From a virus (Duplodnaviria; Heunggongvirae; Uroviricota; Caudoviricetes): a stretch of 10,228 bases of DNA. The notes under the pieces were generated by a model. That model was not told where the DNA came from. It saw only the letters and a program-made list of their open reading frames with translations, and made no database searches. Shown piece after piece: positions 1 through 10,228 of the stretch. Each line of letters begins with the position of its first letter. Positions within the stretch are counted from its first letter, which is position 1. The DNA lies in IMG/VR virus record IMGVR_UViG_2923302340_000004, positions 1 to 10,228 of that record; one strand, 5' to 3'. The position numbers were made by a program, and so were the translations under genes.

Positions 1-1428
1 GTGAAATTATTCAGATTCTCTAAAGTAAAAATTGCAGAACTGCCAACGCCGGAACATGGACAGGTCGAATATGGTGATACGGAGGTTAACGGGCTGCGTG
101 TCCGTGTAGGTTCGTCTGGTGTGAAAAGTTTCTGCATTTCCCGTAAGCGTAACGGAAAATTTATTCGTGCAACGCTGGGGCGTTTTCCTGATCTGAGCGT
201 GGATAATGCCAGGGCTAAAGCTATGGAACTCCTTGGCGAAGTCGCCACAACGGGGATAAATCCGAACATAGCAAAGCGCACTAACAACAAGGCCATGATA
301 ACGCTGAGTGAGGCGATTGACGCCTACGTAAAAAATCGTGGCCACCGCCTGAAACCCGCCACAGAAAAACAGTACCGCAGCATATTACAGAATTATTCCG
401 GTGACTGGATGGCCCATACCCTCGCCAGTATTTCCCGCGAACGGGTGGAACAACGGCATAAGGCCATCACTGATGGGGCTGTATGGTTCGGTGCTGATAA
501 AACCACGTTACGGGCTGGGGTTGGTACAGGAAGCAAGGCACAGGCCGATTTATGGGCGCGTGCGCTACGTGCTGTGTGTCGGTTTGCGCATGATCATTAC
601 CGTGATGATGCGGGTAATACTCTTTTACCGGATCCGCCGACTCTGGTACTGAGCACCAAGCGCCAGTGGCACGGAACGGTAAGAAAAACGGAACGTATCC
701 GCCTGCATGATTTTCCCCGCTGGTTTGCTGCTGTAGCTGCTGTGCGCGACCAGGGCGAACAGGAAAGGGATGATATAGCGGTGACGGTATGCGATGCCGT
801 GGAAATGGCGCTTTTTACCGGACTGAGGAAATCAGAAATTTTTGGCCTTACGTGGGATCGAGTGAATATGGGCGGTCGTTTTTTCTGGATAGACACCACG
901 AAAAACGGGGATCCGCTCGAATTACCGATTACTGATACGTTGCGGGAAATGTTCCACCGCCGACTGAAAATAAAAAACGCTGATGATGTTCTGCTGTTTC
1001 CTGGTGTGAAGGGAGTGATTCAGGAAACACGGCACATCATAGACCGGATAAGCGCGGCTACTGTTCCAGAGTCGAACGATGAAATGCTCTCCCCTGTACC
1101 ATTCAAATGGCACGATGCACGCCGGACGTTCGGAACGGTTGCCGAACTGGTGGGCGTGGGCAATTACATCCTCAAGCGCCTGATGAATCACCGTACTATG
1201 CGAAGTGCTGACGTAACGCAGGGGTATTTACATTTTGGTGCTGATGAACTGCTGGAGCCAGCGTCACGGATAGAACGGGCAATTCTGGAACATGCCGGGC
1301 TGGTGGAGAGTAAAAAATCTATCGATGCGCAATTGCTTTCCGCACTGGAGAGTATGAGTGACAGTGAGAAACGCGCATTACTATTTAGTATCGTTAATTC
1401 AAATGGTGATTTGAATGTCAGAAAATAA
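1..1428 (+). CDS. int: Tyrosine site-specific integrase, P4-type (N-terminal arm-binding domain plus catalytic core)
   Basis: 475-aa ORF. N-terminus (KIAELPTPEHGQVEYGDTEVNGLRVRVGSSGVKSFCISRKRNGKFIRATLG...INP) matches the arm-type DNA-binding domain pattern of P4-family integrases. C-terminal core has the H-x-x-R box (WHDARRTFGT) and a terminal Tyr motif (DVTQGYLHF). Starts with GTG at the window edge, so the true start could be at or just upstream of position 1. Has a ~50-aa C-terminal extension relative to typical members. Confidence 0.9.
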   Translation: MKLFRFSKVKIAELPTPEHGQVEYGDTEVNGLRVRVGSSGVKSFCISRKRNGKFIRATLGRFPDLSVDNARAKAMELLGEVATTGINPNIAKRTNNKAMITLSEAIDAYVKNRGHRLKPATEKQYRSILQNYSGDWMAHTLASISRERVEQRHKAITDGAVWFGADKTTLRAGVGTGSKAQADLWARALRAVCRFAHDHYRDDAGNTLLPDPPTLVLSTKRQWHGTVRKTERIRLHDFPRWFAAVAAVRDQGEQERDDIAVTVCDAVEMALFTGLRKSEIFGLTWDRVNMGGRFFWIDTTKNGDPLELPITDTLREMFHRRLKIKNADDVLLFPGVKGVIQETRHIIDRISAATVPESNDEMLSPVPFKWHDARRTFGTVAELVGVGNYILKRLMNHRTMRSADVTQGYLHFGADELLEPASRIERAILEHAGLVESKKSIDAQLLSALESMSDSEKRALLFSIVNSNGDLNVRK

Positions 1429-2101
1429 AATCATTGCTGCAATAGAATTTGACCATAATGATGCGAAGGATATGAATACTATTGCAGATTATATTAGAGA
1501 TGAACTGGCGTCTTCTTTTGTAAAAAAAACGATATGCGATATGGCAAATATCACACCATCTAAAATGTCTCTGGAGGAGAGATTATCATTATCGTCAGAG
1601 ATAGAAAATAAGGATTTAAAGGTTAATATTTCTGTATGTGCCGGGTATGGAGATGATTTTGATAAAAAATTTAATAGTGCATATTCAGAATTCAATGATA
1701 TTTTGAAAGCTGCCATTATATTTGAAGTTCTTGGTTTCAACAGACTTGCAGATCAGTTACGTGAAAGATATGCGATTTTAGTGTCGGAGAATTTATTAAA
1801 ATCAGTACGTGATATAGCTAATGTAAAGAAAATTATCAGTGAAGACCGTAGTAAAGCAAAGAAAGGAAAAACAAACAGGCATAAATCAACAGCGTTATCT
1901 ATAGCTTGTAACACTTGGAAAAAATACCCTAATGCCAGTTTACCCGGGCTATCCGCAGAGATATACGCGCATTTACGCAATAAATGGAATGATGTCCCTG
2001 TAGTTGGGACTATAGAGAGATGGCTTAAGGAGTCGGGGATGAATCCAAAATCCCCGCAAAAAAACAGGGATTTTAAGTTAGTTATTGGAGACAAAGAATA
2101 A
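1415..2101 (+). CDS. Hypothetical protein, AT-rich accessory (cargo) gene between int and alpA
   Basis: 228-aa ORF. ATG at 1415 is preceded by GGTGA and overlaps the integrase stop by 14 nt. The gene is visibly AT-rich (roughly one-third GC by eye) against ~50% GC flanks. No motif I can confidently assign; C-terminal third is basic (KKGKTNRHK...) and could be nucleic-acid binding. Confidence 0.6.
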   Translation: MSENKIIAAIEFDHNDAKDMNTIADYIRDELASSFVKKTICDMANITPSKMSLEERLSLSSEIENKDLKVNISVCAGYGDDFDKKFNSAYSEFNDILKAAIIFEVLGFNRLADQLRERYAILVSENLLKSVRDIANVKKIISEDRSKAKKGKTNRHKSTALSIACNTWKKYPNASLPGLSAEIYAHLRNKWNDVPVVGTIERWLKESGMNPKSPQKNRDFKLVIGDKE

Positions 2102-2233
2102 ATCCAGTTTTATCCTCTGTAATCCAGATTTCAGTCATGTAAACCAGATATGCGATTTTGTATCTGGTTTTCCTGTCTTCAAGACTTCCCCATCGCTAAA
2201 TAACGTATACCTGTTCTTAATCAGAAGTATACG
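2101..2233 (+). promoter_or_regulatory. Putative alpA promoter/operator region with direct repeats and a perfect 9-bp inverted repeat
   Basis: Direct repeats AATCCAG(A)TTT at 2101-2111 and 2121-2131. Perfect inverted repeat AACCAGATA (2142-2150) - 10 nt - TATCTGGTT (2161-2169), immediately upstream of the alpA start. Confidence 0.35.
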
Positions 2234-2242
2234 GTGATACTC

Positions 2243-2431
2243 ATGCATTTAGAAAAGATGACCCGCAAAGAAGCTGCCGAGCATTTGGGGGTAAGTGTCC
2301 AGACTCTTGCTAACTGGGCGTGTACTGGCAAGGTAAAAATCCCTTTTCATAAGCTGGGGCGCAAAGTGCTGTATATGCGCACTGATCTCGATGCTTATCT
2401 TGCATCCACTCGCAGAACGCAGACGGTGTAA
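2243..2431 (+). CDS. alpA: AlpA-family / excisionase-like helix-turn-helix DNA-binding protein
   Basis: Short protein with the typical HTH signature MTRKEAAEHLGVSVQTLANWACTGKVKIPFHKLGRKVLYMRTDLDAYL (compare AlpA/HTH_17 pattern: hydrophobic-LGVS-x-T-hydrophobic-x-x-W ... G-R-x-hydrophobic-x-hydrophobic-x-x-x-L-x-x-W/Y-L). Located directly after int and a cargo gene, as in CP4-57-type islands. Start ambiguous: GTG 2234, ATG 2243 (GGTGA upstream) or ATG 2258. Confidence 0.8.
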   Translation: MHLEKMTRKEAAEHLGVSVQTLANWACTGKVKIPFHKLGRKVLYMRTDLDAYLASTRRTQTV

Positions 2432-2541
2432 GGGGGAGTGATGGCACATAAAACAAAGGCGACCGCAGAGGGCCGCCAGTGGCATAACACTAAACTTGAG
2501 CATATCCAGAATACCAGGTTGTTGGCTGGTGGGCAATGCAA

Positions 2542-2715
2542 TCAGTCTGGTTCAGTTCGTTGCCATACCTGCAATGGGCGCGTTTCCCTGTACTCTTTAA
2601 GGAATTGCTCAAGGGCAAAAGCACATGGCGCGAATCTTTCTGATTCATGCTCTATCTTTCTGCGCCGTCTTTTCCGTGCCGGTGATAATGTTTTGGTCAA
2701 TTCTTTATCGGTCAT
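2542..2715 (-). CDS. Small basic hypothetical protein (uncertain; may be non-coding)
   Basis: Minus-strand ORF downstream of the RHH gene, reading MTDKELTKTLSPARKRRRRKIEHESERFAPCAFALEQFLKEYRETRPLQVWQRTEPD. AGGA lies 8 nt upstream of the internal ATG; the alternative ATG at 2730 has no SD. Many rare Arg codons (AGA, CGG, AGG). A same-region + strand frame is also open, so the coding strand is not settled. Confidence 0.3.
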   Translation of the reverse strand: MTDKELTKTLSPARKRRRRKIEHESERFAPCAFALEQFLKEYRETRPLQVWQRTEPD

Positions 2716-2772
2716 TGTGTTGTCCTGCATAGCAATGCGCCGTAGTTACTCACACCACGGCGCTGGTGATGG

Positions 2773-2952
2773 TTACTCCTGCTCTTTGGCCTTGCGGCGC
2801 TGGCGGCGTTTGATCTCGCCTTTAACGGCAGTAACTATAAATTGCGCCTTGCTTTCACCTTCATCTAAATTTTTTTCTAAGTCTGCAACAACATCATGCG
2901 GGAATCTGGCATTTAACTGTTGCGACTTATTATTTGTTGAACCTGTTGCCAT
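2773..2952 (-). CDS. Ribbon-helix-helix (Arc/MetJ/CopG-like) small DNA-binding protein, putative transcriptional repressor
   Basis: 59-aa product MATGSTNNKSQQLNARFPHDVVADLEKNLDEGESKAQFIVTAVKGEIKRRQRRKAKEQE. Layout is beta-strand (QQLNARFP), helix A, G-x-S turn (GES), helix B, basic tail, which is the classical RHH pattern. ATG at 2952-2950 is preceded by a strong SD (GAGAGGA) 7 nt upstream. The longer ORF-track version (to 3126) has an implausible N-terminal extension covering the promoter. Confidence 0.6.
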   Translation of the reverse strand: MATGSTNNKSQQLNARFPHDVVADLEKNLDEGESKAQFIVTAVKGEIKRRQRRKAKEQE

Positions 2953-3142
2953 TACTGAATCCTCTCTAAGTTGGTGCGATTCAGTATACACAAAAAAAAT
3001 TTCAGAGAAAGGCTTGAAGTGCGATTCACTTTCTGATAGGTTAAAAACGAATGGTGCGATGCACCAAGCAACAACGCCCCGCAGTGGTGGCACACATGCA
3101 GGGCGTCTAACCACCAACGATAGCAACAGTATCGAGGCAGCT
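2953..3142. promoter_or_regulatory. Divergent control region between the RHH gene (-) and the icd-like gene (+), with repeated GTGCGAT operator-like motifs
   Basis: GGTGCGATTCAG at 2973-2984, AGTGCGATTCAC at 3018-3029, and the palindromic GGTGCGATGCACC at 3053-3065. A -10-like TATACT (minus strand, plus coordinates 2983-2988) overlaps the first repeat, just upstream of the RHH SD. Confidence 0.4.
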
Positions 3143-3346
3143 ATGAGAAATTATACCAGACACCCGCAAGGGCGGGACTCGTACAACCTGAATAAATACA
3201 TCTGGCGTTTTATCGCCCTGAGCACGGCACAACCGCGCGTGATTACCATTGAGGCCACCAGCGAACAGGAAGCGCGTCAGCAATCTCCGGCTGGCTGCGT
3301 GATGGTATTCGCCGCCCGTATTCGTCAGGGGGTGTGCCATGCCTGA
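3143..3346 (+). CDS. Icd-like small protein (host cell division inhibitor Icd-like family), tentative
   Basis: 67-aa product MRNYTRHPQGRDSYNLNKYIWRFIALSTAQPRVITIEATSEQEARQQSPAGCVMVFAARIRQGVCHA. The YIW-F-A ... IEA-SE-EAR ... FAAR pattern resembles the short Icd-like proteins annotated in P4-like elements. GAGG lies 7 nt upstream of ATG 3143. The upstream in-frame extension of the ORF track (from 2438) looks non-coding. Confidence 0.55.
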   Translation: MRNYTRHPQGRDSYNLNKYIWRFIALSTAQPRVITIEATSEQEARQQSPAGCVMVFAARIRQGVCHA

Positions 3347-3659
3347 TATGTCAAATTACCAGTACCTGATTAATCCGCATTTTAACTGTGAGCATGATAT
3401 TGCTAAAAAGGTTTATTCCGCTGCTGATGAGGCTACTGACAATATATCAATGGCTGTTGCGTCAATTGGTAGCCTGATGTGGCATGCGTCAGAAAATGAG
3501 GACTATGACGAAAAGGCCATGCGCATTGATATGGGTAATATCGGTTTGTTACTGGCAATGCTTGGGCGGTTTGATATTTCGTTACGGTGCACCATTGAAA
3601 ATGCCACAGATGCATTAAATGCCATAAAGAAAGCGAATACTGATTCAAATCGGGGATAA
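3339..3659 (+). CDS. Hypothetical protein
   Basis: 106-aa ORF. Its ATG overlaps the icd-like stop (ATGCCTGA), suggesting translational coupling. A G-rich SD-like stretch lies upstream. Acidic protein with no recognisable motif. Confidence 0.55.
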   Translation: MPDMSNYQYLINPHFNCEHDIAKKVYSAADEATDNISMAVASIGSLMWHASENEDYDEKAMRIDMGNIGLLLAMLGRFDISLRCTIENATDALNAIKKANTDSNRG

Positions 3660-3665
3660 ATAATC

Positions 3666-3965
3666 ATGAGAACATATTTATCTGGCTTGACTGCCAGCGG
3701 TTATGCACACCCCAAAATTATCCCCGGCGCTATTTATCTGGATAAGAACGGTAACAGAGTAACGGTAAAAGAACTGATGTTTGACCGTGTGTATTTTATT
3801 CGTGATGGCTATTCATTTCATAGTTCGCTGAACGTGGAGATCTTTATTAGCAGATTCCGGCGGGAAATCCCGACTTCCAGAAATAACCATGTGTCACGTG
3901 TGGATGTGGATAAAAAACTGCAGGAACTGAAAAACATGATTGCCGCGTGGAGAGAGCCGAAATGA
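3666..3965 (+). CDS. Hypothetical protein (small, precedes the primase)
   Basis: 99-aa ORF. GGGGA SD lies 9 nt upstream of ATG 3666. Its stop TGA (3963-3965) overlaps the primase ATG (3962) as ATGA. No motif confidently assigned. Confidence 0.55.
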   Translation: MRTYLSGLTASGYAHPKIIPGAIYLDKNGNRVTVKELMFDRVYFIRDGYSFHSSLNVEIFISRFRREIPTSRNNHVSRVDVDKKLQELKNMIAAWREPK

Positions 3966-6085
3966 AAAAAGCGCCAAATTTAAAACACCAGCCGCGTGAC
4001 AAAATGACGGAAGTCATCATTTTTGCGGGTAGTGATGCGTGGGCACATGCGAAGCAGTGGCAGGAACAGGACGGGCGACTGGCTGGCGATAACGTGCCTC
4101 CTGTCTGGCTTGGAGAGCAACAACTTGCCGAACTGGACAACCTGCAAATCGTACCGGACGGACGCTATCGCGTGCGTCTCTATCAGGCGGGGTTATTGCG
4201 TCCGGGGCTTGTTAATACCATCGGGCAGAAACTGGCAGCGGCAGGTGTCAGGGATGCTGATTATTACCCTGAAGGAATGCACAGCCAGAAACGGGAGAAC
4301 TGGCGCGAATATCTGGAACGTGAACGGGCAGAGCAGGCGGAAAAGAAAAAGGTAGTTGAACTGCCTGTAAAGAAAAAAGAGCCATGCTATCAGGATGATG
4401 AATTAAAGCCCCGCGTTGAAAGTCGCGTCGATGGTGTTTTCTGGGTAACGCCCAAAGTGGATAAGCAGTCAGGCGAAATTATCCGGCCTGAGACGTGGTT
4501 ATGTTCTCCGCTTGAACTACTGGGAACGGGGACGATCGGTAAAGAGCATTACCGCGTGATGCGCTGGAAAAAATTAGCAAACCATGAAGTCATCACAATG
4601 GCGATCCCGTGTGGTGGCATTGGCGACCGTGACGGCTGGCGGTTGCTTAAAGATCACGGGCTGAACGTGACAACAAACGGCAAATACAGGGCTATCCTGG
4701 CTGACTGGATGCAGTTAAGCGGAAGCCATGAGGAATGGCAGCTAAGCACAACAACGGGCTGGCATTTTGGCGCGTATATCATGCCGGACGGCTCAATCAT
4801 TGGTGATTCTGAAAAACCGATCCTGTTTACCGGAAAAAGTGCCGCTGTTAATGGCTATTCGGTTGCGGGTACGGCGGAGGGCTGGCGCGACTGCGTGGCG
4901 CGGCTGGCTGGTGGCAATCCGTCCATGATGCTGGGTGTTGCCACGTCACTGGCAGCACCTTTGATTGGCCTTGTTGGTGCTGACGGCTTCGGGGTACATC
5001 TTTTCGAACAGTCATCGGCAGGGAAAACCACCACGCAGAACATCGCATCCAGTTTATGGGGAGAGCCGGACGCACAACGGCTGACCTGGTACGGCACAGC
5101 GTTAGGTATCGCTAACGAGGCAGAGGCGCACAACGACGGGCTGTTACCCCTGGATGAAATAGGCCAGGCCGGAAACGCGCGGGAGGTGTCCACGTCAGCC
5201 TATACGTTGTTTAACGGTTCCGGGAAATTACAGGGGGCGAAGGACGGCGGCAACCGGGAGATAAAACACTGGCGCACGGTGGCAATCAGCACCGGAGAAA
5301 TGGACGTTGAGACATTCCTCAAAACGGAGGGGATAAAAGTCAAAGCGGGGCAGCTTGTCCGCCTGCTTAACGTTCCGATGGAAAAAGCCACGCACTTTCA
5401 CGAATACAGCACCGGAAAGGCGCACGCAGACGCGTTAAAGGATGCCTGGACAGAAAATCACGGGGCAGCGGGTCGTGAGTGGGTTAAATGGCTGGCAGGC
5501 CACCAGCAGGAGGCAAAGGATACGGTAAGGGAATGCCGCGAACGGTGGCGCAACCTGATACCGGAGAGCTACGGCGAGCAGGTCCACCGCGTGGGTGAGC
5601 GTTTCGCCATACTGGAGGCCGCGCTTGTGCTTTCCGGTCATGTAACTGGCTGGGCCGCGCAGGAATGCCGGGACGCAATACAGCATAACTTTAATGCCTG
5701 GGTGAAGGAGTTCGGCACGGGTAACAGGGAATTTAAACAGATGGTTGAACAGGCTGAGGCGTTTTTGTCGTCGTTCGGGTTCAGTCGATACCTTCCTTAC
5801 CCAAACAGTGATGAACGTGATTTACCGATTAAAGACCTTGCCGGATACAGAAAGGGGAGTATCAGAAATGAAGATGATGAGTTCCGTTTTTACACGTTTC
5901 CTCATGTGTTTGAGGGGGAGATCGCACAGGGATTTAACCCGTCCCACTTTGCCCGCGCGTTGAGTGCTGCCGGAATGCTGGAAGCGGGTAACGATCGCCG
6001 TTACAAGAAAAAGGCTCTCGGCAAAATTGGGGGGAAGCAGCATGTTTTTTACGTGCTGATGTTCCAGCCTGAGGCAGAAGATTAA
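3962..6085 (+). CDS. Replication protein: primase/helicase-like with a central P-loop NTPase domain (PICI Pri-Rep / P4 alpha-like role)
   Basis: ~708-aa ORF. ATG 3962 is preceded by GAGAG and overlaps the upstream stop; the ORF-track start is a GTG at 3947. Walker A-like FEQSSAGKTTTQ and Walker B-like GLLPLDEIGQ lie in the middle of the protein. Its size and position immediately upstream of an iteron array are typical of satellite/plasmid primase-helicases (DUF927-like). The family name is from memory. Confidence 0.8.
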   Translation: MKKAPNLKHQPRDKMTEVIIFAGSDAWAHAKQWQEQDGRLAGDNVPPVWLGEQQLAELDNLQIVPDGRYRVRLYQAGLLRPGLVNTIGQKLAAAGVRDADYYPEGMHSQKRENWREYLERERAEQAEKKKVVELPVKKKEPCYQDDELKPRVESRVDGVFWVTPKVDKQSGEIIRPETWLCSPLELLGTGTIGKEHYRVMRWKKLANHEVITMAIPCGGIGDRDGWRLLKDHGLNVTTNGKYRAILADWMQLSGSHEEWQLSTTTGWHFGAYIMPDGSIIGDSEKPILFTGKSAAVNGYSVAGTAEGWRDCVARLAGGNPSMMLGVATSLAAPLIGLVGADGFGVHLFEQSSAGKTTTQNIASSLWGEPDAQRLTWYGTALGIANEAEAHNDGLLPLDEIGQAGNAREVSTSAYTLFNGSGKLQGAKDGGNREIKHWRTVAISTGEMDVETFLKTEGIKVKAGQLVRLLNVPMEKATHFHEYSTGKAHADALKDAWTENHGAAGREWVKWLAGHQQEAKDTVRECRERWRNLIPESYGEQVHRVGERFAILEAALVLSGHVTGWAAQECRDAIQHNFNAWVKEFGTGNREFKQMVEQAEAFLSSFGFSRYLPYPNSDERDLPIKDLAGYRKGSIRNEDDEFRFYTFPHVFEGEIAQGFNPSHFARALSAAGMLEAGNDRRYKKKALGKIGGKQHVFYVLMFQPEAED

Positions 6086-6116: not shown

Positions 6117-6424
6117 TGCGGGTTACTATGTGTATAAGTGCATTAACTGCATGAATAAAAAGGAAATCAATAACCCGCACGTAACCCGCAAAACGGCAGT
6201 TATAACCCGCAAAAGTGCGATTATAACCCGCAGATGAATAACAGGAAGTGACAGCAAACAGCCACGCGTAACCCGCAGAAAAAACCCCGTTTGCGGGTTA
6301 TTTTGAGCATTTTGCGGGTTACGCCACGGCTAAACAGTAAACAGTTAATTTTGTAATGTATTGATATTAAGGAATAAAAAATACTTAGCAAGCGAAGATA
6401 ACCCGCTAACCCGCATAACCCGCA
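6117..6424. repeat. Iteron array, putative origin of replication of the element
   Basis: At least 11 copies of the 9-bp motif TAACCCGCA in both orientations. Forward copies at 6171, 6182, 6203, 6224, 6269, 6407 and 6416, plus variant TAACCCGCT at 6399. Reverse copies TGCGGGTTA at 6117, 6292 and 6313. Several spacings are 11 or 21 bp (helical phasing). An AT-rich stretch (about 6330-6395) and TATATATATA (about 6433-6442) lie within and beside the array. Located directly 3' of the primase gene. Confidence 0.7.
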
Positions 6425-7336: not shown

Positions 7337-8383
7337 ATGAGTATGGTTGATTTATATTCGCCTACACAGCTTGTGCAGGTGGCTAATGCTGAAGATGTGC
7401 AAAAAAAATTAAATGCGTTGTTTACCAGTTTGTTTTTCACTCGCTCGGTAATGTTTGAATCGAGAGACATTATTCTTGATACGATCGACGATCCAAATAT
7501 CCCGATCGCGGCGTTTTGCTCTCCTATGGTGGGCAGTAAAGTTTCACGAGATGAGGGATACGAATCAAAAACAATTCGTCCAGGTTATATGAAGCCGAAA
7601 AGCAGCATTGATCCAAATAAGTTAGCTGTGCGCCCTGCTGGTGTGTCACCTGAGCAATACAATGCTTTTGGGGCGCGTAATATTAAAGTTAAACAGGCGA
7701 TTGTAAATCAGGCTAAAGCTATTCGTGCACGTATTGAATGGCTTGCTGTTCAGGCAATCACAACGGGGAAAAATATCATTGAGGGCGATGGTATTGAACG
7801 TTATGAGCTGGACTGGAATATAAAACCACAAAATATCATCACTCAGTCTGGCGGTACTGAGTGGTCAGGTAAGGATAAAGAAACTTTTGATCCAAATGAT
7901 GATATTGAGAGCTACGCAGAATTTAGTGAGGGCGTCACTAATATCATCATTATGGGTGGTAATGTATGGAAGAAATACCGTTCATTCAGAGCGATAAAAG
8001 AGGCTTTGGATACCCGTCGTGGCTCTAATTCCGAACTGGAAACGGCCCTTAAAGACCTTGGTGATTCGGTGAGTTTTAAAGGGTATATGGGCGATGTTGC
8101 GATTGTTGTTTACAGCGGGCGTTATACCGACGAGGACGGAACTGAAAAATATTTCCTTGATCCTGATTTGATGGTGCTTGGCAATACGGCTCTTCAGGGG
8201 ATTGTCGCTTATGGCGGTATTCAGGATCCGGAGCTAATCCGGATGGGGCTGACTAAAGCCGAACTTGCACCGAAAAACTATATTGTGCCTGGTGATCCGG
8301 CTATTGAATATGTGCAGACACATTCAGCACCACAGCCAATACCGGCCCGCATCAATCGTTTTGTTACCGTTCGCATTGGCTAA
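7337..8383 (+). CDS. Major capsid protein, lambda gpE family
   Basis: Extensive collinear similarity to lambda gpE as I recall it: MSM start, then NIITQSGGTEWSGKDKETFDPNDDIESYA, LDTRRGSNSELETALKDLG, YMGDVAIVVYSG, MVLGNT, GDPAIEYVQTHSAP against lambda NITQSGGTEWSKRDKSTYDPTDDIEAYA, LDTRRGSNSELETAVKDLG, MYGDVAIVVYSG, MVLGNT, GDPAREFTMIQSAP. SD AAGAGGA lies at 7331-7337; the start is ATG 7337 or, with better spacing, ATG 7343. The ORF-track start at 7256 is an artefactual extension. Confidence 0.9.
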   Translation: MSMVDLYSPTQLVQVANAEDVQKKLNALFTSLFFTRSVMFESRDIILDTIDDPNIPIAAFCSPMVGSKVSRDEGYESKTIRPGYMKPKSSIDPNKLAVRPAGVSPEQYNAFGARNIKVKQAIVNQAKAIRARIEWLAVQAITTGKNIIEGDGIERYELDWNIKPQNIITQSGGTEWSGKDKETFDPNDDIESYAEFSEGVTNIIIMGGNVWKKYRSFRAIKEALDTRRGSNSELETALKDLGDSVSFKGYMGDVAIVVYSGRYTDEDGTEKYFLDPDLMVLGNTALQGIVAYGGIQDPELIRMGLTKAELAPKNYIVPGDPAIEYVQTHSAPQPIPARINRFVTVRIG

Positions 8384-8392
8384 GGGGGAGCA

Positions 8393-8734
8393 ATGGCTAC
8401 TCATTACACTGAACTCATGTCTGGCACTGAAGCACTGGTTACTACGCTGGGGATATTTTCAGCCAATAAAGGGGTAATACCTGCGTTTACGCCACTGATG
8501 CAGGAAGATGCAACTGGTGCGCTAGTGGTATGGGATGGAACGAGCGCAGGCAAAGCGGTTTATGTTTCCGCTGTACAAATCGACACAGCGAAAAAAACAC
8601 AGGCACAGGTTTATAAGACAGGTGTTTTAAATGTTGATGCTCTGAACTGGCCTGAGTCTGTAAAAGAACTGTCGGCAAAGGTTGCCGCGTTTGTTGGCTC
8701 AGGTATTTCTGTTCAGCCGCTGGCTCGTGTGTAA
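8393..8734 (+). CDS. Head decoration protein, lambda gpD family
   Basis: 113 aa. PAFTPLMQEDATGALVVWDGTSAGKAVYVSAVQ...YKTGVLNVDALNWPE...AAFVGSGISVQ aligns by eye with lambda gpD [32 protein letters not shown]...YKSGTFRYEDVLWPE...TAFAGTAISIV. Strong SD TAAGGGGGAG is coupled to the capsid gene stop. Confidence 0.8.
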   Translation: MATHYTELMSGTEALVTTLGIFSANKGVIPAFTPLMQEDATGALVVWDGTSAGKAVYVSAVQIDTAKKTQAQVYKTGVLNVDALNWPESVKELSAKVAAFVGSGISVQPLARV

Positions 8735-8745
8735 AGGGGGATACA

Positions 8746-9129
8746 ATGCAGAATCATTACAATGACCTTAAGCCAATTGCCGAAATGATGTATCCGGATC
8801 CAGCAGTAGAGGAATTAAAGGCTATTGCTGACAAAATGCGTTTAAGTGAACGCCTTGTTGATATGAATCAGGTGATGGAACTTACTACCCTTAGCCGTCG
8901 CACATTGCTAAACCTTGAGGCTCGCGGAGAGTTCCCCGAACGCGTACAGGTTACGGAAGGGCGTAAGGCCTGGTATTTAAGTGAAGTGATCGACTGGATA
9001 AACAATATTCCTCGAGCTTCTGAATATTGCCGCGTACCTGTCCCAAAAAAGCCAGATGCGGCGCTATGCCTCAAGATTGAGCGTGTACGCCGCAATGCAT
9101 GGGATGGTCGCTATAAGCTGATTGGTTGA
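8746..9129 (+). CDS. Second AlpA-like / excisionase-type HTH protein with N- and C-terminal extensions
   Basis: 127 aa. Central segment VDMNQVMELTTLSRRTLLNLEARGEFPERVQVTEGRKAWYLSEVIDWINN matches the AlpA/HTH_17 signature (TGLSRSTIYRL...G.FP.P...G.R...W...E...W). SD TAAAGGGGGA is coupled to the gpD-like stop. Lies immediately upstream of the cos site. Confidence 0.65.
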   Translation: MQNHYNDLKPIAEMMYPDPAVEELKAIADKMRLSERLVDMNQVMELTTLSRRTLLNLEARGEFPERVQVTEGRKAWYLSEVIDWINNIPRASEYCRVPVPKKPDAALCLKIERVRRNAWDGRYKLIG

Positions 9130-9182
9130 TGAAATTAGGGCCCGTTCTGGCTGGCGGGTCCTTTCCGGCGATCCGGTAGGCT

Positions 9183-9230
9183 ACGGGGCGGCGACCTTGC
9201 GGATTTTCGCTATTTATGAGCCTTTTCGGG
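9183..9230. other. cos site: lambda-type cosN (12-nt cohesive-end sequence GGGCGGCGACCT at 9186-9197) with flanking sequence, followed by a divergent cosB-like region
   Basis: ACGGGGCGGCGACCTTGCGGATTTTCGCTATTTATGAGCCTTTTCGGG is near-identical over ~35 nt to the lambda left end GGGCGGCGACCTCGCGGGTTTTCGCTATTTATGAAAATTTTCCGG (from memory). It sits ~135-150 nt upstream of the Nu1-like gene, as in lambda. Sequence beyond ~9220 diverges from lambda cosB. Confidence 0.75.
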
Positions 9231-9330
9231 TTGGTGGTGGTGGTTTTGTTTTTCGCTCTATCTCTATGAATAAAAAGGGAAAGATAACACCAACACACCA
9301 ACCTGAAACCTTAACTAAGTGGGGATATTG

Positions 9331-9873
9331 ATGAAATCGCACCTGATGAACAAAAAAACTATGGCGCAAAGCTGCCGCGTAAGTGCGACAGCGTTCGACA
9401 AGTGGGGAGTAACTCCCGTTGAGCGTAAAGGCCGTGAGGCGTTTTATGATGTTGCTAGCGTGATAGACAATAGGGTTAACAATGCAATTAACCAGCTTAC
9501 AAACGACAAAGGCGAGATTGATGATGATGAACTTTTACGCGTAAGAATCAGATTAATGACGGCCCAGGCGGAAGCGCAGGAACTTAAAAACGAGCGCGAA
9601 CGCGGCGAGGTGATTGATACAAAGTTTTGCATCTACGCGATTTCAAAACTAGCGAGTCAGATTTCATCAATCATGGACAGCCTCCCGCTCACAATGCAAA
9701 GGCGCTTTCCCGATATAAAGCCGTATATGCTGGATGAACTAAAAAGGGAAATAGCCAAAGCATGTAACGCATGTGCAAGACTTGACGAAAACCTGCCACA
9801 GATACTGGCTGATTACCTGATGGAAACTACCGGAAACGCGCCTGAGAAGTTGCTAGAGAACAAAGGCGAGTAA
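9331..9873 (+). CDS. Terminase small subunit, lambda Nu1 family (satellite TerS / packaging-redirection candidate)
   Basis: RLMTAQAEAQELKNERERGEVIDTKFCIYAISKLASQISSIMDSLPLTMQRRFPDI matches lambda Nu1 RLTRAQADAQELKNARDSAEVVETAFCTFVLSRIAGEIASILDGLPLSVQRRFPEL. The N-terminus MNKKTMAQ... corresponds to the Nu1 wHTH start MEVNKKQLAD. GGGGA SD precedes ATG 9331; alternative ATG at 9346; the ORF-track start is GTG 9319. Confidence 0.85.
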   Translation: MKSHLMNKKTMAQSCRVSATAFDKWGVTPVERKGREAFYDVASVIDNRVNNAINQLTNDKGEIDDDELLRVRIRLMTAQAEAQELKNERERGEVIDTKFCIYAISKLASQISSIMDSLPLTMQRRFPDIKPYMLDELKREIAKACNACARLDENLPQILADYLMETTGNAPEKLLENKGE

Positions 9874-9946
9874 CCGCCGCCCCGTAACGGGCCATAATTC
9901 CAGGAAGGACCCGACGACACCAGGCTATCAGAACGATGAGGGCACA

Positions 9947-10228
9947 ATGACTGAAGCCGAACTACTGGGATTAATCCGCCGCGTCGTCGGAATCAGCCAG
10001 CAGCATGACGAACAGGCCACACAGCCGGACAGCGTGACCGCTGAAAATTATGTGCGTGTTGTTGCTGAGGTGATGCGCCGTGATGGTATTGAGCTTAACG
10101 GCGTGGATATGCGCAACATACGAACAAGAGTCCTTGAGTTGCTGGCATACCGTCGCCGTTCTCAACAACGGAGGGAGAGCGCGAAAAATACTTACCAGTG
10201 GAAGAAGCCGGAACGGTTGCGGCGGTAG
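9947..10228 (+). CDS. Hypothetical small basic protein downstream of TerS
   Basis: 93-aa ORF with GAGGG SD 6 nt upstream of ATG 9947; stop TAG at 10226-10228 is the last codon of the window. Arg-rich C-terminus. No similarity I can recognise to the lambda gpA N-terminus. Confidence 0.45.
   Translation: MTEAELLGLIRRVVGISQQHDEQATQPDSVTAENYVRVVAEVMRRDGIELNGVDMRNIRTRVLELLAYRRRSQQRRESAKNTYQWKKPERLRR

Follow-up and report, generated by a model that had tools for sequence, protein, structure and literature searches.

A Nu1-family small terminase gene, a lambda-type cosN and a non-lambda cosB in a phage-inducible chromosomal island of Escherichia coli

The DNA analysed here is a stretch of 10,228 nt attributed to a virus of the Caudoviricetes (IMG/VR record IMGVR_UViG_2923302340_000004), called the window below. 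It was 100% identical to positions 1140467-1150694 of the chromosome of Escherichia coli CFSAN018748 (NZ_CP028192.1), where it lies in an integrated element of 11.3 kb. The genes run in the order integrase, small helix-turn-helix (HTH) and Icd-like genes, DUF4222, DUF927 primase/helicase, single-stranded DNA-binding protein (SSB), gpE-like, gpD-like, AlpA-family gene, cos site, Nu1-family gene and an open reading frame (ORF) of 93 amino acids (Table 1). Gene annotation revealed no large terminase (TerL), portal, tail or lysis genes in the 11.3-kb element. An earlier note, made from the letters of the window alone, had taken the element for a satellite, and the presence of integrase, AlpA-like, primase, SSB and gpE/gpD-like genes without TerL, portal, tail or lysis genes agrees with it. 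The element has the size (10-20 kb), the mostly co-directional int/alpA/pri-rep backbone and the attachment (att) site of its own that characterize Gram-negative phage-inducible chromosomal islands (PICIs), and it lacks lysis and tail genes as they do. Judged by this content, it is an 11.3-kb Gram-negative PICI of the EcCICFT073 type. A capsid-forming PICI (cf-PICI) was ruled out, as only gpE-like and gpD-like proteins and a small terminase (TerS) are present, without portal, protease, connectors or TerL.

Table 1. Features of the window (+, strand shown; -, opposite strand; signed positions take the leading base of the cosN overhang as +1)
Feature	Position	Strand	Remarks
Satellite backbone	1..6085	+	tyrosine integrase 1-1428, HTH, Icd-like, DUF4222, DUF927 primase/helicase 3947-6085
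gpE-like major capsid gene and gpD-like decoration gene	7343..8734	+	7343-8383 and 8393-8734
AlpA-family regulator	8746..9129	+	directly upstream of cos; Pfam PF05930, phrog_2790
Block homologous to lambda cos core (cosQ, cosN, cosN-to-R3 spacer), ~78 nt	9155..9232	+	ungapped comparison with J02459
cosQ, GGGTCCT	9156..9162	+	-30..-24, spacing as in lambda
cosN cohesive-end sequence, GGGCGGCGACCT	9186..9197	+	nicks predicted from lambda biology before 9186 (top) and after 9197 (bottom)
R3-like putative TerS site, (GGT)4	9233..9244	+	core GGTGGTGGT at +51..+59 (9236-9244); GKT pattern, N15 register
A/T-rich spacer between the two R-like sites	9245..9285		no recognisable consensus for integration host factor (IHF)
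Inverted R2-like site	9286..9308	-	GTTGGTGTT at 9286-9294 (-) and inverted-repeat arm CACCAACCTGAAA at 9296-9308
terS, full-length Nu1-family small terminase	9331..9873	+	180 amino acids; N15-like winged-helix DNA-binding domain; ATG start
Truncated second cos (cos2)	9874..9920	-	directly after the terS stop; retains cosQ, its left flank and 8 overhang nt (GGGCGGCG, then GTTA)
Conserved 93-amino-acid ORF	9947..10228	+	phrog_1561 (function unknown); follows terS and rppA cassettes alike

Our main finding concerns the cos site and the terS gene behind it. After joining the right and left ends of lambda (J02459), we set the window beside this junction, aligned on the overhang and with no gaps allowed. 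The 12-nt cohesive-end sequence of lambda, which the earlier note had recognised, was found once in the window and agreed with lambda at 12/12 positions, while the overhang of N15 differs from that of lambda at 2/12. By chance, the sequence would be expected 0.03 times in the window with one mismatch allowed. Identity to lambda was 27/31 at -31..-1, 20/22 at +13..+34 and 9/13 at +35..+47; it was 8/18 at +48..+65, where lambda has R3, and only at the background level (34%) at +66..+190. The note had put the nearly identical cosN flank at about 25 nt. The near-identity was confirmed and the length was not, for the lambda-like block is longer (~78 nt). Aligned to lambda cos, the match proved neither shorter nor weaker than it had appeared. 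Of 12 Enterobacterales cos regions that we inspected, satellite and phage together, 10 had the cosQ sequence; one prophage (L017) lacked it, and the left flank of N15 was outside the comparison. When 9130-9335 was searched against 50,697 phage records, all matches were confined to 9154-9232 (query 25-103), and no record shared the cosB part.

Beyond the block, the window was said to differ from the R3-I1-R2-R1 region of lambda, and it does: identity is at background, and neither the lambda R consensus nor the IHF consensus is seen. For the R consensus, CGTTTCCKTTCT, no match with up to two mismatches was found in 9198-9330. The description as a diverged cosB was thus right in that the region is not lambda-like. 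It is not merely diverged, however, being organised and probably of the N15/Monarch packaging lineage. In N15, block mutagenesis set R3 to bp 48-59, GAGGTTGTTGTT, with bp 54-59 being most important (PMC4669245). N15 reads GTTGTTGTT at +51..+59, and the window, whose sequence from +44 is GGTTGGTGGTGGTGGTTTTG, has its (GGT)3 core at the identical register. Over +48..+59, the window sequence GGTGGTGGTGGT has the same period and register as N15 and differs from it at 4/12 bases, or 3/9 in the +51..+59 core. The pattern GKTGKTGKT (K = G or T) matched five times in the 10.2-kb window, compared with 0.69 expected. Four of the five matches were in cosB, three of them overlapping at 9230-9244 (+) and one at 9286-9294 (-). 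In addition, 9224-9236 and 9296-9308 form the arms of a 13-nt inverted repeat and are complementary at 12/13 positions. Because of the repeat arm and the minus-strand match, we placed an inverted copy near +101..+123; lambda R2 is at +105..+120. An R1 site is lacking, since terS starts at +146. The putative architecture of R3, spacer and inverted R2 resembles the cosB of lambda and of Monarch-type phages. A repeat common to the cosB spacer and the near-ori region, ATGAATAAAAAGG, was dropped as being at chance level for its length.

The gene behind cosB had been called a Nu1 homologue, and profile searches supported this (Pfam Phage_Nu1, PF07471, E = 6.8e-24; phrog_57, E = 2e-53). Residues 3-180 aligned with lambda Nu1 at 37% identity (E = 1e-35). 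The alignment included the C-terminal third, which in lambda Nu1 binds gpA (PMC6739421, PMC9026076). The best relative in the phage records was gp1 of N15, with 48% identity over 159-162 aligned residues (E = 9e-56). Identity to N15 gp1 was 61% in the DNA-binding domain (residues 6-46), 49% in the centre (65-127) and 33% in the C-terminal third (128-166). The corresponding values were 41%, 51% and 38% for lambda Nu1, and 32%, 43% and 41% for the 21-like TerS of CFT073 prophage 4. The recognition helix reads VSATAFDKW versus ISVQAFDKW in N15-type proteins; the scaffold is shared, and two helix positions are substituted. A profile made from the satellite proteins only matched the lambda TerS structure 6hn7_B at residues 6-84 (E = 0.004), and no meaningful match came from a phmmer search of PDB sequences with TerS. 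In the AlphaFold2 model, built on a 16-sequence alignment, the mean predicted local distance difference test score (pLDDT) was 56 and the predicted template modelling score (pTM) 0.28; only the order of helices and strands fits a winged HTH.

The ratio of nonsynonymous to synonymous substitution rates (dN/dS) of terS was 0.15-0.2 at a dS of 0.45-1.1. Constraint was strongest in the DNA-binding domain, and evolution fastest in the C-terminal third (dN/dS 0.1-0.3). Between E. coli alleles whose terS differed by 34-37% at synonymous sites (pS), the non-coding cosB (+48..+145) differed by 9-18%. The purifying selection on terS, together with the constraint on cosB, points to a function.

TerS homologues with 80-99% identity were annotated in E. 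coli and Shigella, and a group with 54-57% identity in Enterobacter and Citrobacter. We collected 43 further loci from context look-ups and from a scan of one genome per species and classified them by tblastn. The scan yielded loci when it was based on an alignment, and none with a single-protein query. The related loci split into two clean groups, satellites and prophages. The satellites are the window, an O157:H7 island (L004), one in E. coli STEC316 (L005), the island EcCIIHE3034 (L056), three loci embedded in prophages (L009-L011), one in Kosakonia (L013) and one in Superficieibacter (L014). Their hosts include E. coli, Kosakonia, Superficieibacter and the source of an Enterobacteriaceae metagenome contig with an Enterobacter/Citrobacter-type TerS, and their TerS identity goes down to 55%. 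TerS and motif thus recur in four genera besides that of the window. In the satellites, terS is preceded by gpE-like, gpD-like and AlpA-like genes, with an unrelated 137-amino-acid ORF in the AlpA slot of L004 and L056. A gpA-like terL follows terS in 41/41 prophage loci, as in N15, versus none of the satellites.

The same division was seen in the recognition helix and in R3. The helix reads (S/G)(A/V)TAFDKW in satellites, and SVQ, SPQ, STQ, TVQ or TTQ followed by AFDKW in all 41 terL-linked relatives. R3 is GGTGGTGGT at +51..+59 in every satellite, and GTTGTTGTT in N15 and in the six of the 41 prophage loci, all enterobacterial (L015-L020), in which the upstream region was read. One locus of unknown context, L012, has the helix GLTSFDKW and the R3 sequence GGTGGGCGT. 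N15 and Monarch phages resemble the window in the lineage of the TerS DNA-binding domain (AFDKWGV.PVE..GRE) and in a triplet-periodic G-K-T R3 at +51..+59; they are unlike it in being phages with terS followed by terL, in an R3 of GTT rather than GGT, and in a helix with SVQ rather than SAT. One of the prophages (L015) has a tripartite cosB of the Monarch type, with inverted and direct extra R copies. Other parts of the satellite cosB are also conserved. The spacer motif ATCT(N3)ATGAAT was found in the window, L004, L005, L056, L012 and L014, with a variant (ATCT, six bases, ATGAT) in L009-L011; the block ACACC(A/C)ACC of the R2-like arm was kept in the four E. coli loci (window, L004, L005 and L056), in L012 and in L014.

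Among the satellites, the DNA-binding domain is 73-98% identical and the C-terminal third down to 26%; between the E. coli and the Enterobacter/Citrobacter types the values are 73-76% and 26%, respectively. Such a fast C-terminal third would be expected if it tracked different helper TerLs. We also considered that the cassette is simply the cos-terS region of a prophage. This was ruled out, as the inspected E. coli matches of 80-90% (L004, L005 and L056) all lie in satellites and no phage with this cosB was found.

Some satellites reside within possible helpers. One satellite, in E. coli STEC316 (L005/L006), has the cassette with a TerS of 83% identity and interrupts the portal gene of a lambdoid prophage. 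Through cosQ, cosN and R3-I1-R2-R1, the cos of this prophage departs from lambda at only a few positions, and the BLASTP alignment of its Nu1 to the window TerS is the same as that of lambda Nu1. The cosB and TerS of the satellite are unlike those of its host prophage, as a specificity swap predicts. In L009-L011, from Enterobacteriaceae, the capsid gene of a lambdoid prophage harbours the satellite. The helper-embedded arrangement has been described (bioRxiv 10.1101/2022.07.18.500453), and it offers ready-made pairs of helper and satellite.

That a satellite combines phage-like cosQ and cosN with its own cosB is a principle already established for EcCICFT073. This island has a phage-type cosQ/cosN and an island-specific cosB, and its Rpp protein retargets the helper TerS by binding to it (PMC6092414, PMC6739421, PMC9026076). 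It resembles the window in carrying int, an Icd-like gene, DUF4222, primase/helicase, SSB, gpE-like and gpD-like genes, a short ORF, cos, one variable gene and the 93-amino-acid ORF. Its right part runs capsid, decoration, short ORF, cos1, rppA (144 amino acids), inverted cos2 and the 93-amino-acid ORF. The variable gene is rppA there and a TerS of the Nu1 family with 180 amino acids here, and only the window of the two has an inverted R2-like copy. The predicted dependence differs as well: the window would depend on no helper terminase subunit but TerL, and EcCICFT073 cannot do without the helper TerS. The O157:H7 island, at the phoQ-side integration site that it shares with EcCICFT073, carries the terS version. 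Given this common site and the equal gene order, one and the same slot can therefore hold either of two cassettes, terS or rppA.

The window TerS is not itself an Rpp. Rpps have 135-153 amino acids, with a winged helix and an Rpp-type dimerisation domain, and lack the TerL-binding C-terminus (PMC6739421, PMC9026076). Membership was ruled out by the length of 180 amino acids, the lack of any BLASTP alignment to RppA, an hhalign probability of 0.07% and a C-terminal third that aligns to Nu1. We regard the protein as a complete small terminase because it aligns to the whole of Nu1 and has no similarity to RppA. The two cassettes may nevertheless be connected through their cosB sites. A site R3-PICI has been proposed in EcCICFT073 at bp 55-63, ACCACCACC (PMC9026076). 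We found that this 9-mer (L007 2613-2621, +55..+63) is the exact reverse complement of GGTGGTGGT, the window copy being 4 bp closer to cosN. By a rough estimate, the chance of sharing an exact 9-mer at such a position is 1e-4. RppA and the satellite TerS are also alike in the residue five places ahead of the conserved Trp in the recognition helix; it is Thr in both, Gln in N15-type proteins and Arg in lambda. The comparison suggests a common ancestry of TerS-type and Rpp-type cassettes.

From these comparisons, which agree with the packaging-specificity swap suggested in the note, we propose that the satellite TerS probably binds its own cosB and recruits the helper TerL to cut the shared cosN, a reading in which we have fair but not high confidence. 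A helper TerL of the gpA type would nick and terminate at cosQ and cosN sequences like those of a lambda-like helper. A dimer of the satellite TerS would bind the (GGT)n R3 at +48..+59, and probably the inverted arm (+101..+123) too, the changed recognition helix SATAFDKW in a winged-helix domain of N15 type reading the satellite cosB. The Nu1-like central and C-terminal regions of TerS would recruit the helper TerL. Cleavage would then fall at 9186/9197, packaging would proceed rightwards from 9186 through terS, and termination would occur at a later cos through the shared cosQ. Four units of 11.3 kb (45 kb, ~93% of the lambda genome) would fill a head of lambda size, and 45 kb is within the packaging limits of lambda. 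For EcCICFT073, the packaging of multimers in full-size heads has been proposed (PMC6092414). Exchange of terminase parts has a precedent in a lambda-N15 hybrid, in which TerS-N15hy4 works with the lambda TerL (PMC4669245). We infer the binding, the TerL contact, the cut sites and the independence from the helper TerS from sequence only.

Several observations weigh against this proposal. The base at 9198 (+13), adjoining the bottom-strand nick site, is T, which breaks one symmetric pair of cosN; lambda, N15, the 21-like phage of CFT073 and those other satellites that have a lambda overhang all carry C there. The change could alter nicking efficiency. No IHF consensus with up to one mismatch was found in 9198-9330, and the R2-like arm is absent from the Enterobacter/Citrobacter-type satellites L009-L011. 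With 33-41% identity to the TerS proteins of lambda, 21-like phages and N15, the C-terminal region leaves the fit with any given TerL unproven. Structural support goes no further than homology of sequence, the AlphaFold model being poor. The covariation of helix and motif (T with GGT, Q with GTT) is suggestive, and it is in essence one contrast between two clades. Lastly, EcCIIHE3034 failed to transfer when its own strain was induced with mitomycin C (PMC6092414). Its cassette is closely related to that of the window (TerS 86% identical, cos and cosB near-identical). The failure may reflect only the lack of a suitable helper.

The nearest alternative is modelled on Rpp. The satellite TerS might act only in a hetero-complex with the helper TerS, in which it would provide the DNA specificity and the helper TerS the contact to TerL, while also poisoning helper packaging. 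Its gene lies in the exact slot of rppA within the same gene order, the O157 terS island shares the integration site of EcCICFT073, Rpp is thought to be derived from TerS (PMC6739421), and the Rpp-type cosB holds the same 9-mer in inverted orientation. The central oligomerisation region is ~50% identical to that of lambda Nu1, so mixed oligomers are conceivable. However, no similarity to RppA was detected by either BLASTP or hhalign, and the Nu1-like C-terminal third, which Rpps lack, is retained whole. It is also under purifying selection, which would be needless if the helper TerS made the TerL contact. We consider a purely Rpp-like mode unlikely.

Alternatively, the satellite might mimic N15 or Monarch phages. 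The helper's own TerS would then read the (GKT)3 sites, and the satellite terS would be redundant or boost efficiency without any swap of specificity. The R3 sites of satellites and of N15/Monarch phages agree in period, register and 6/9 bases, and Monarch-type prophages with an overhang identical to that of lambda occur in Escherichia (L015 and L016). The N15-specific terminase is permissive and packages lambda DNA too (PMC4669245). Yet GGT goes with the T-helix in 7/8 satellite loci (the exception being L012, of unknown context) and GTT with the Q-helix in N15 and the six prophages read, and scrambling of N15 R3 at bp 54-59, with 4/6 bases changed, cuts the yield ~100-fold (PMC4669245). Moreover, one satellite with the cassette resides in a prophage with a lambda cosB, and terS has been kept intact in at least 762 genomes. 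Mimicry of this kind seems quite improbable to us. A last explanation, that terS and cos1 only titrate or misdirect the helper terminase or are a decaying capture from a prophage while transfer occurs by other means, could appeal to the interference genes that PICIs often carry in this region (PMC6092414, PMC6739421), to the capture of helper late genes by related satellites (bioRxiv 10.1101/2022.07.18.500453) and to the lack of EcCIIHE3034 transfer in its sole test (PMC6092414), but it is very unlikely in view of the purifying selection on terS, the constraint on non-coding cosB, a module conserved across genera with its motif register fixed, the lack of a known phage source with such a cosB and the lack of another complete cos in the window island.

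Recruitment of the helper TerL by a TerS of the satellite, as we propose, has a parallel in Staphylococcus aureus. In its pathogenicity islands (SaPIs) of the pac type, a satellite small terminase also redirects the helper large terminase (PMC6739421). They differ from the window in headful (pac) packaging, in an unrelated TerS family and in a separate inhibitor, Ppi, of the phage TerS. No analogue of Ppi was identified in the window element. In E. coli, Fillol-Salom et al. (2018) noted that some Gram-negative PICIs "contain a terS homolog" and named EcCIIHE3034 and EcCI18098, neither of which was transferred after induction of its own strain (PMC6092414). EcCIIHE3034 shares with the window cosQ, cosN, the (GGT)n element, the spacer and the ACACCAACC block. 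It is unlike the window in its integration at cspD-clpS (tRNA-Ile2 in the window) and in having kept cos2. The main text of that paper has no discussion of the cos or cosB of TerS-encoding islands; its supplement was searched only for the island names and for terS/terminase. In the literature searched, we found no mechanistic study of a Nu1-type TerS in PICIs, of its adjoining cos or of an N15-type R3. TerS-encoding E. coli PICIs were thus catalogued in 2018, with none of them mobilised or dissected.

Behind terS lies the second cos. In the window, a deletion of ~180 bp has removed the right half of its cosN and its cosB (cosB2). Because cos2 is truncated, cos1 is the only complete cos of the window island. 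A complete inverted cos2 is present in EcCICFT073 (L007) and in the O157 island (L004), and in the IHE3034 island (L056) as judged by an equal spacing from terS to the ORF. We had considered that the cos2 junction marks a cassette swap; this was ruled out, as the O157 and IHE3034 terS islands keep cos2 and the window has a deletion. The O157 cos2 (L004 12700-12883, -) has three copies of an R-like motif, TCAGATCC, in the order direct, inverted, direct, as in lambda R3-R2-R1. The cos2 of EcCICFT073 (L007 3160-3309, -) likewise has three copies of an R-like motif, ATGTCCGG/CCGGACAT, similar to the repeats of TGTCGG type in the 21-like helper prophage of CFT073. It may be that cos2 is the helper-matched cos and cos1 the island-specific one. 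The 93-amino-acid ORF is 78% identical between the window and CFT073, where it follows rppA, and 87-92% identical among terS islands. Its conservation would make it a partner of the packaging module.

The other features of the element are those of an integrated island. Its chromosomal neighbours are nfeF and an ileX-type tRNA-Ile2. It extends from a displaced tRNA 3' fragment on the left to the complete tRNA-Ile2 (anticodon CAT) on the right; the two have a block of 19 identical nt in common, which therefore gives a length of 11,289 bp. Just outside the window, the displaced fragment on the integrase side and the reconstituted tRNA differ from each other by compensatory changes in the T-arm (L003 11776-11820 and 23064-23139). 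Close to each end of the element there is a copy of a 22-nt repeat, CACGGTATCCTATAGGTATCCT, a possible arm site for the integrase. About 100 bp 3' of the DUF927 primase gene, there are two tandem 21-nt repeats, TAACCCGCAAAACGGCAGTTA and TAACCCGCAAAAGTGCGATTA, at 6182-6223. PICI replication origins are reported downstream of the primase gene, and because of this position we read the repeats as probable ori iterons. The gpE-like and gpD-like genes have a counterpart in the capsid/decoration pair c1499/c1500 of EcCICFT073, which is dispensable for transfer of that island (PMC6092414). A search of 8700-10228 gave no sigma-70-like promoter and, on the plus strand, a single terminator-like match (8838-8853), which falls within the AlpA-family gene. 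We did not identify a helper prophage in CFSAN018748. Three other places of its chromosome matched part of the 751-nt cos-terS query and may be resident cos-type prophages, which would be candidate helpers, or other PICIs.

The cassette was frequent in E. coli. The 751-nt cos-terS segment was detected in 880 of 5,426 complete E. coli genomes, 762 of them with at least 80% coverage (~14-16%), and O157:H7 genomes were among those listed. The rppA segment was detected in 97 of the 5,426 (rppA/B, ~2%). As the distant RppC type would escape megablast, this is a minimum for all Rpp types. On these counts, 762-880 versus 97 genomes, E. coli carries the terS cassette more often than the rppA one.

We tentatively suggest, with more doubt than conviction, that E. 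coli cos-PICIs carry interchangeable packaging cassettes at one slot, and that the TerS with (GGT)3 site and SAT helix is a further lambda-like specificity found only in satellites, needs nothing but the helper TerL and is ancestral to Rpp. If so, this ancestry would account for the inverted 9-mer kept in the Rpp-type cosB, and the cassette would be a concrete candidate for the origin of Rpp. Among E. coli cos-PICIs, no mechanism but the Rpp adaptor has been worked out; if the suggestion is true, this adaptor would be a minority solution. The GGT/T-helix, GTT/Q-helix and lambda systems form a natural test set for how winged-HTH small terminases read R sites. Virulence and defence genes travel between enterobacteria on PICIs, and the way in which a PICI captures the packaging motor determines by which phages it can be spread and to what degree it blocks them. 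Dependence on a helper TerL without the helper TerS would alter the range of helpers, the escape routes of the phage and the design of PICI-based delivery vectors.

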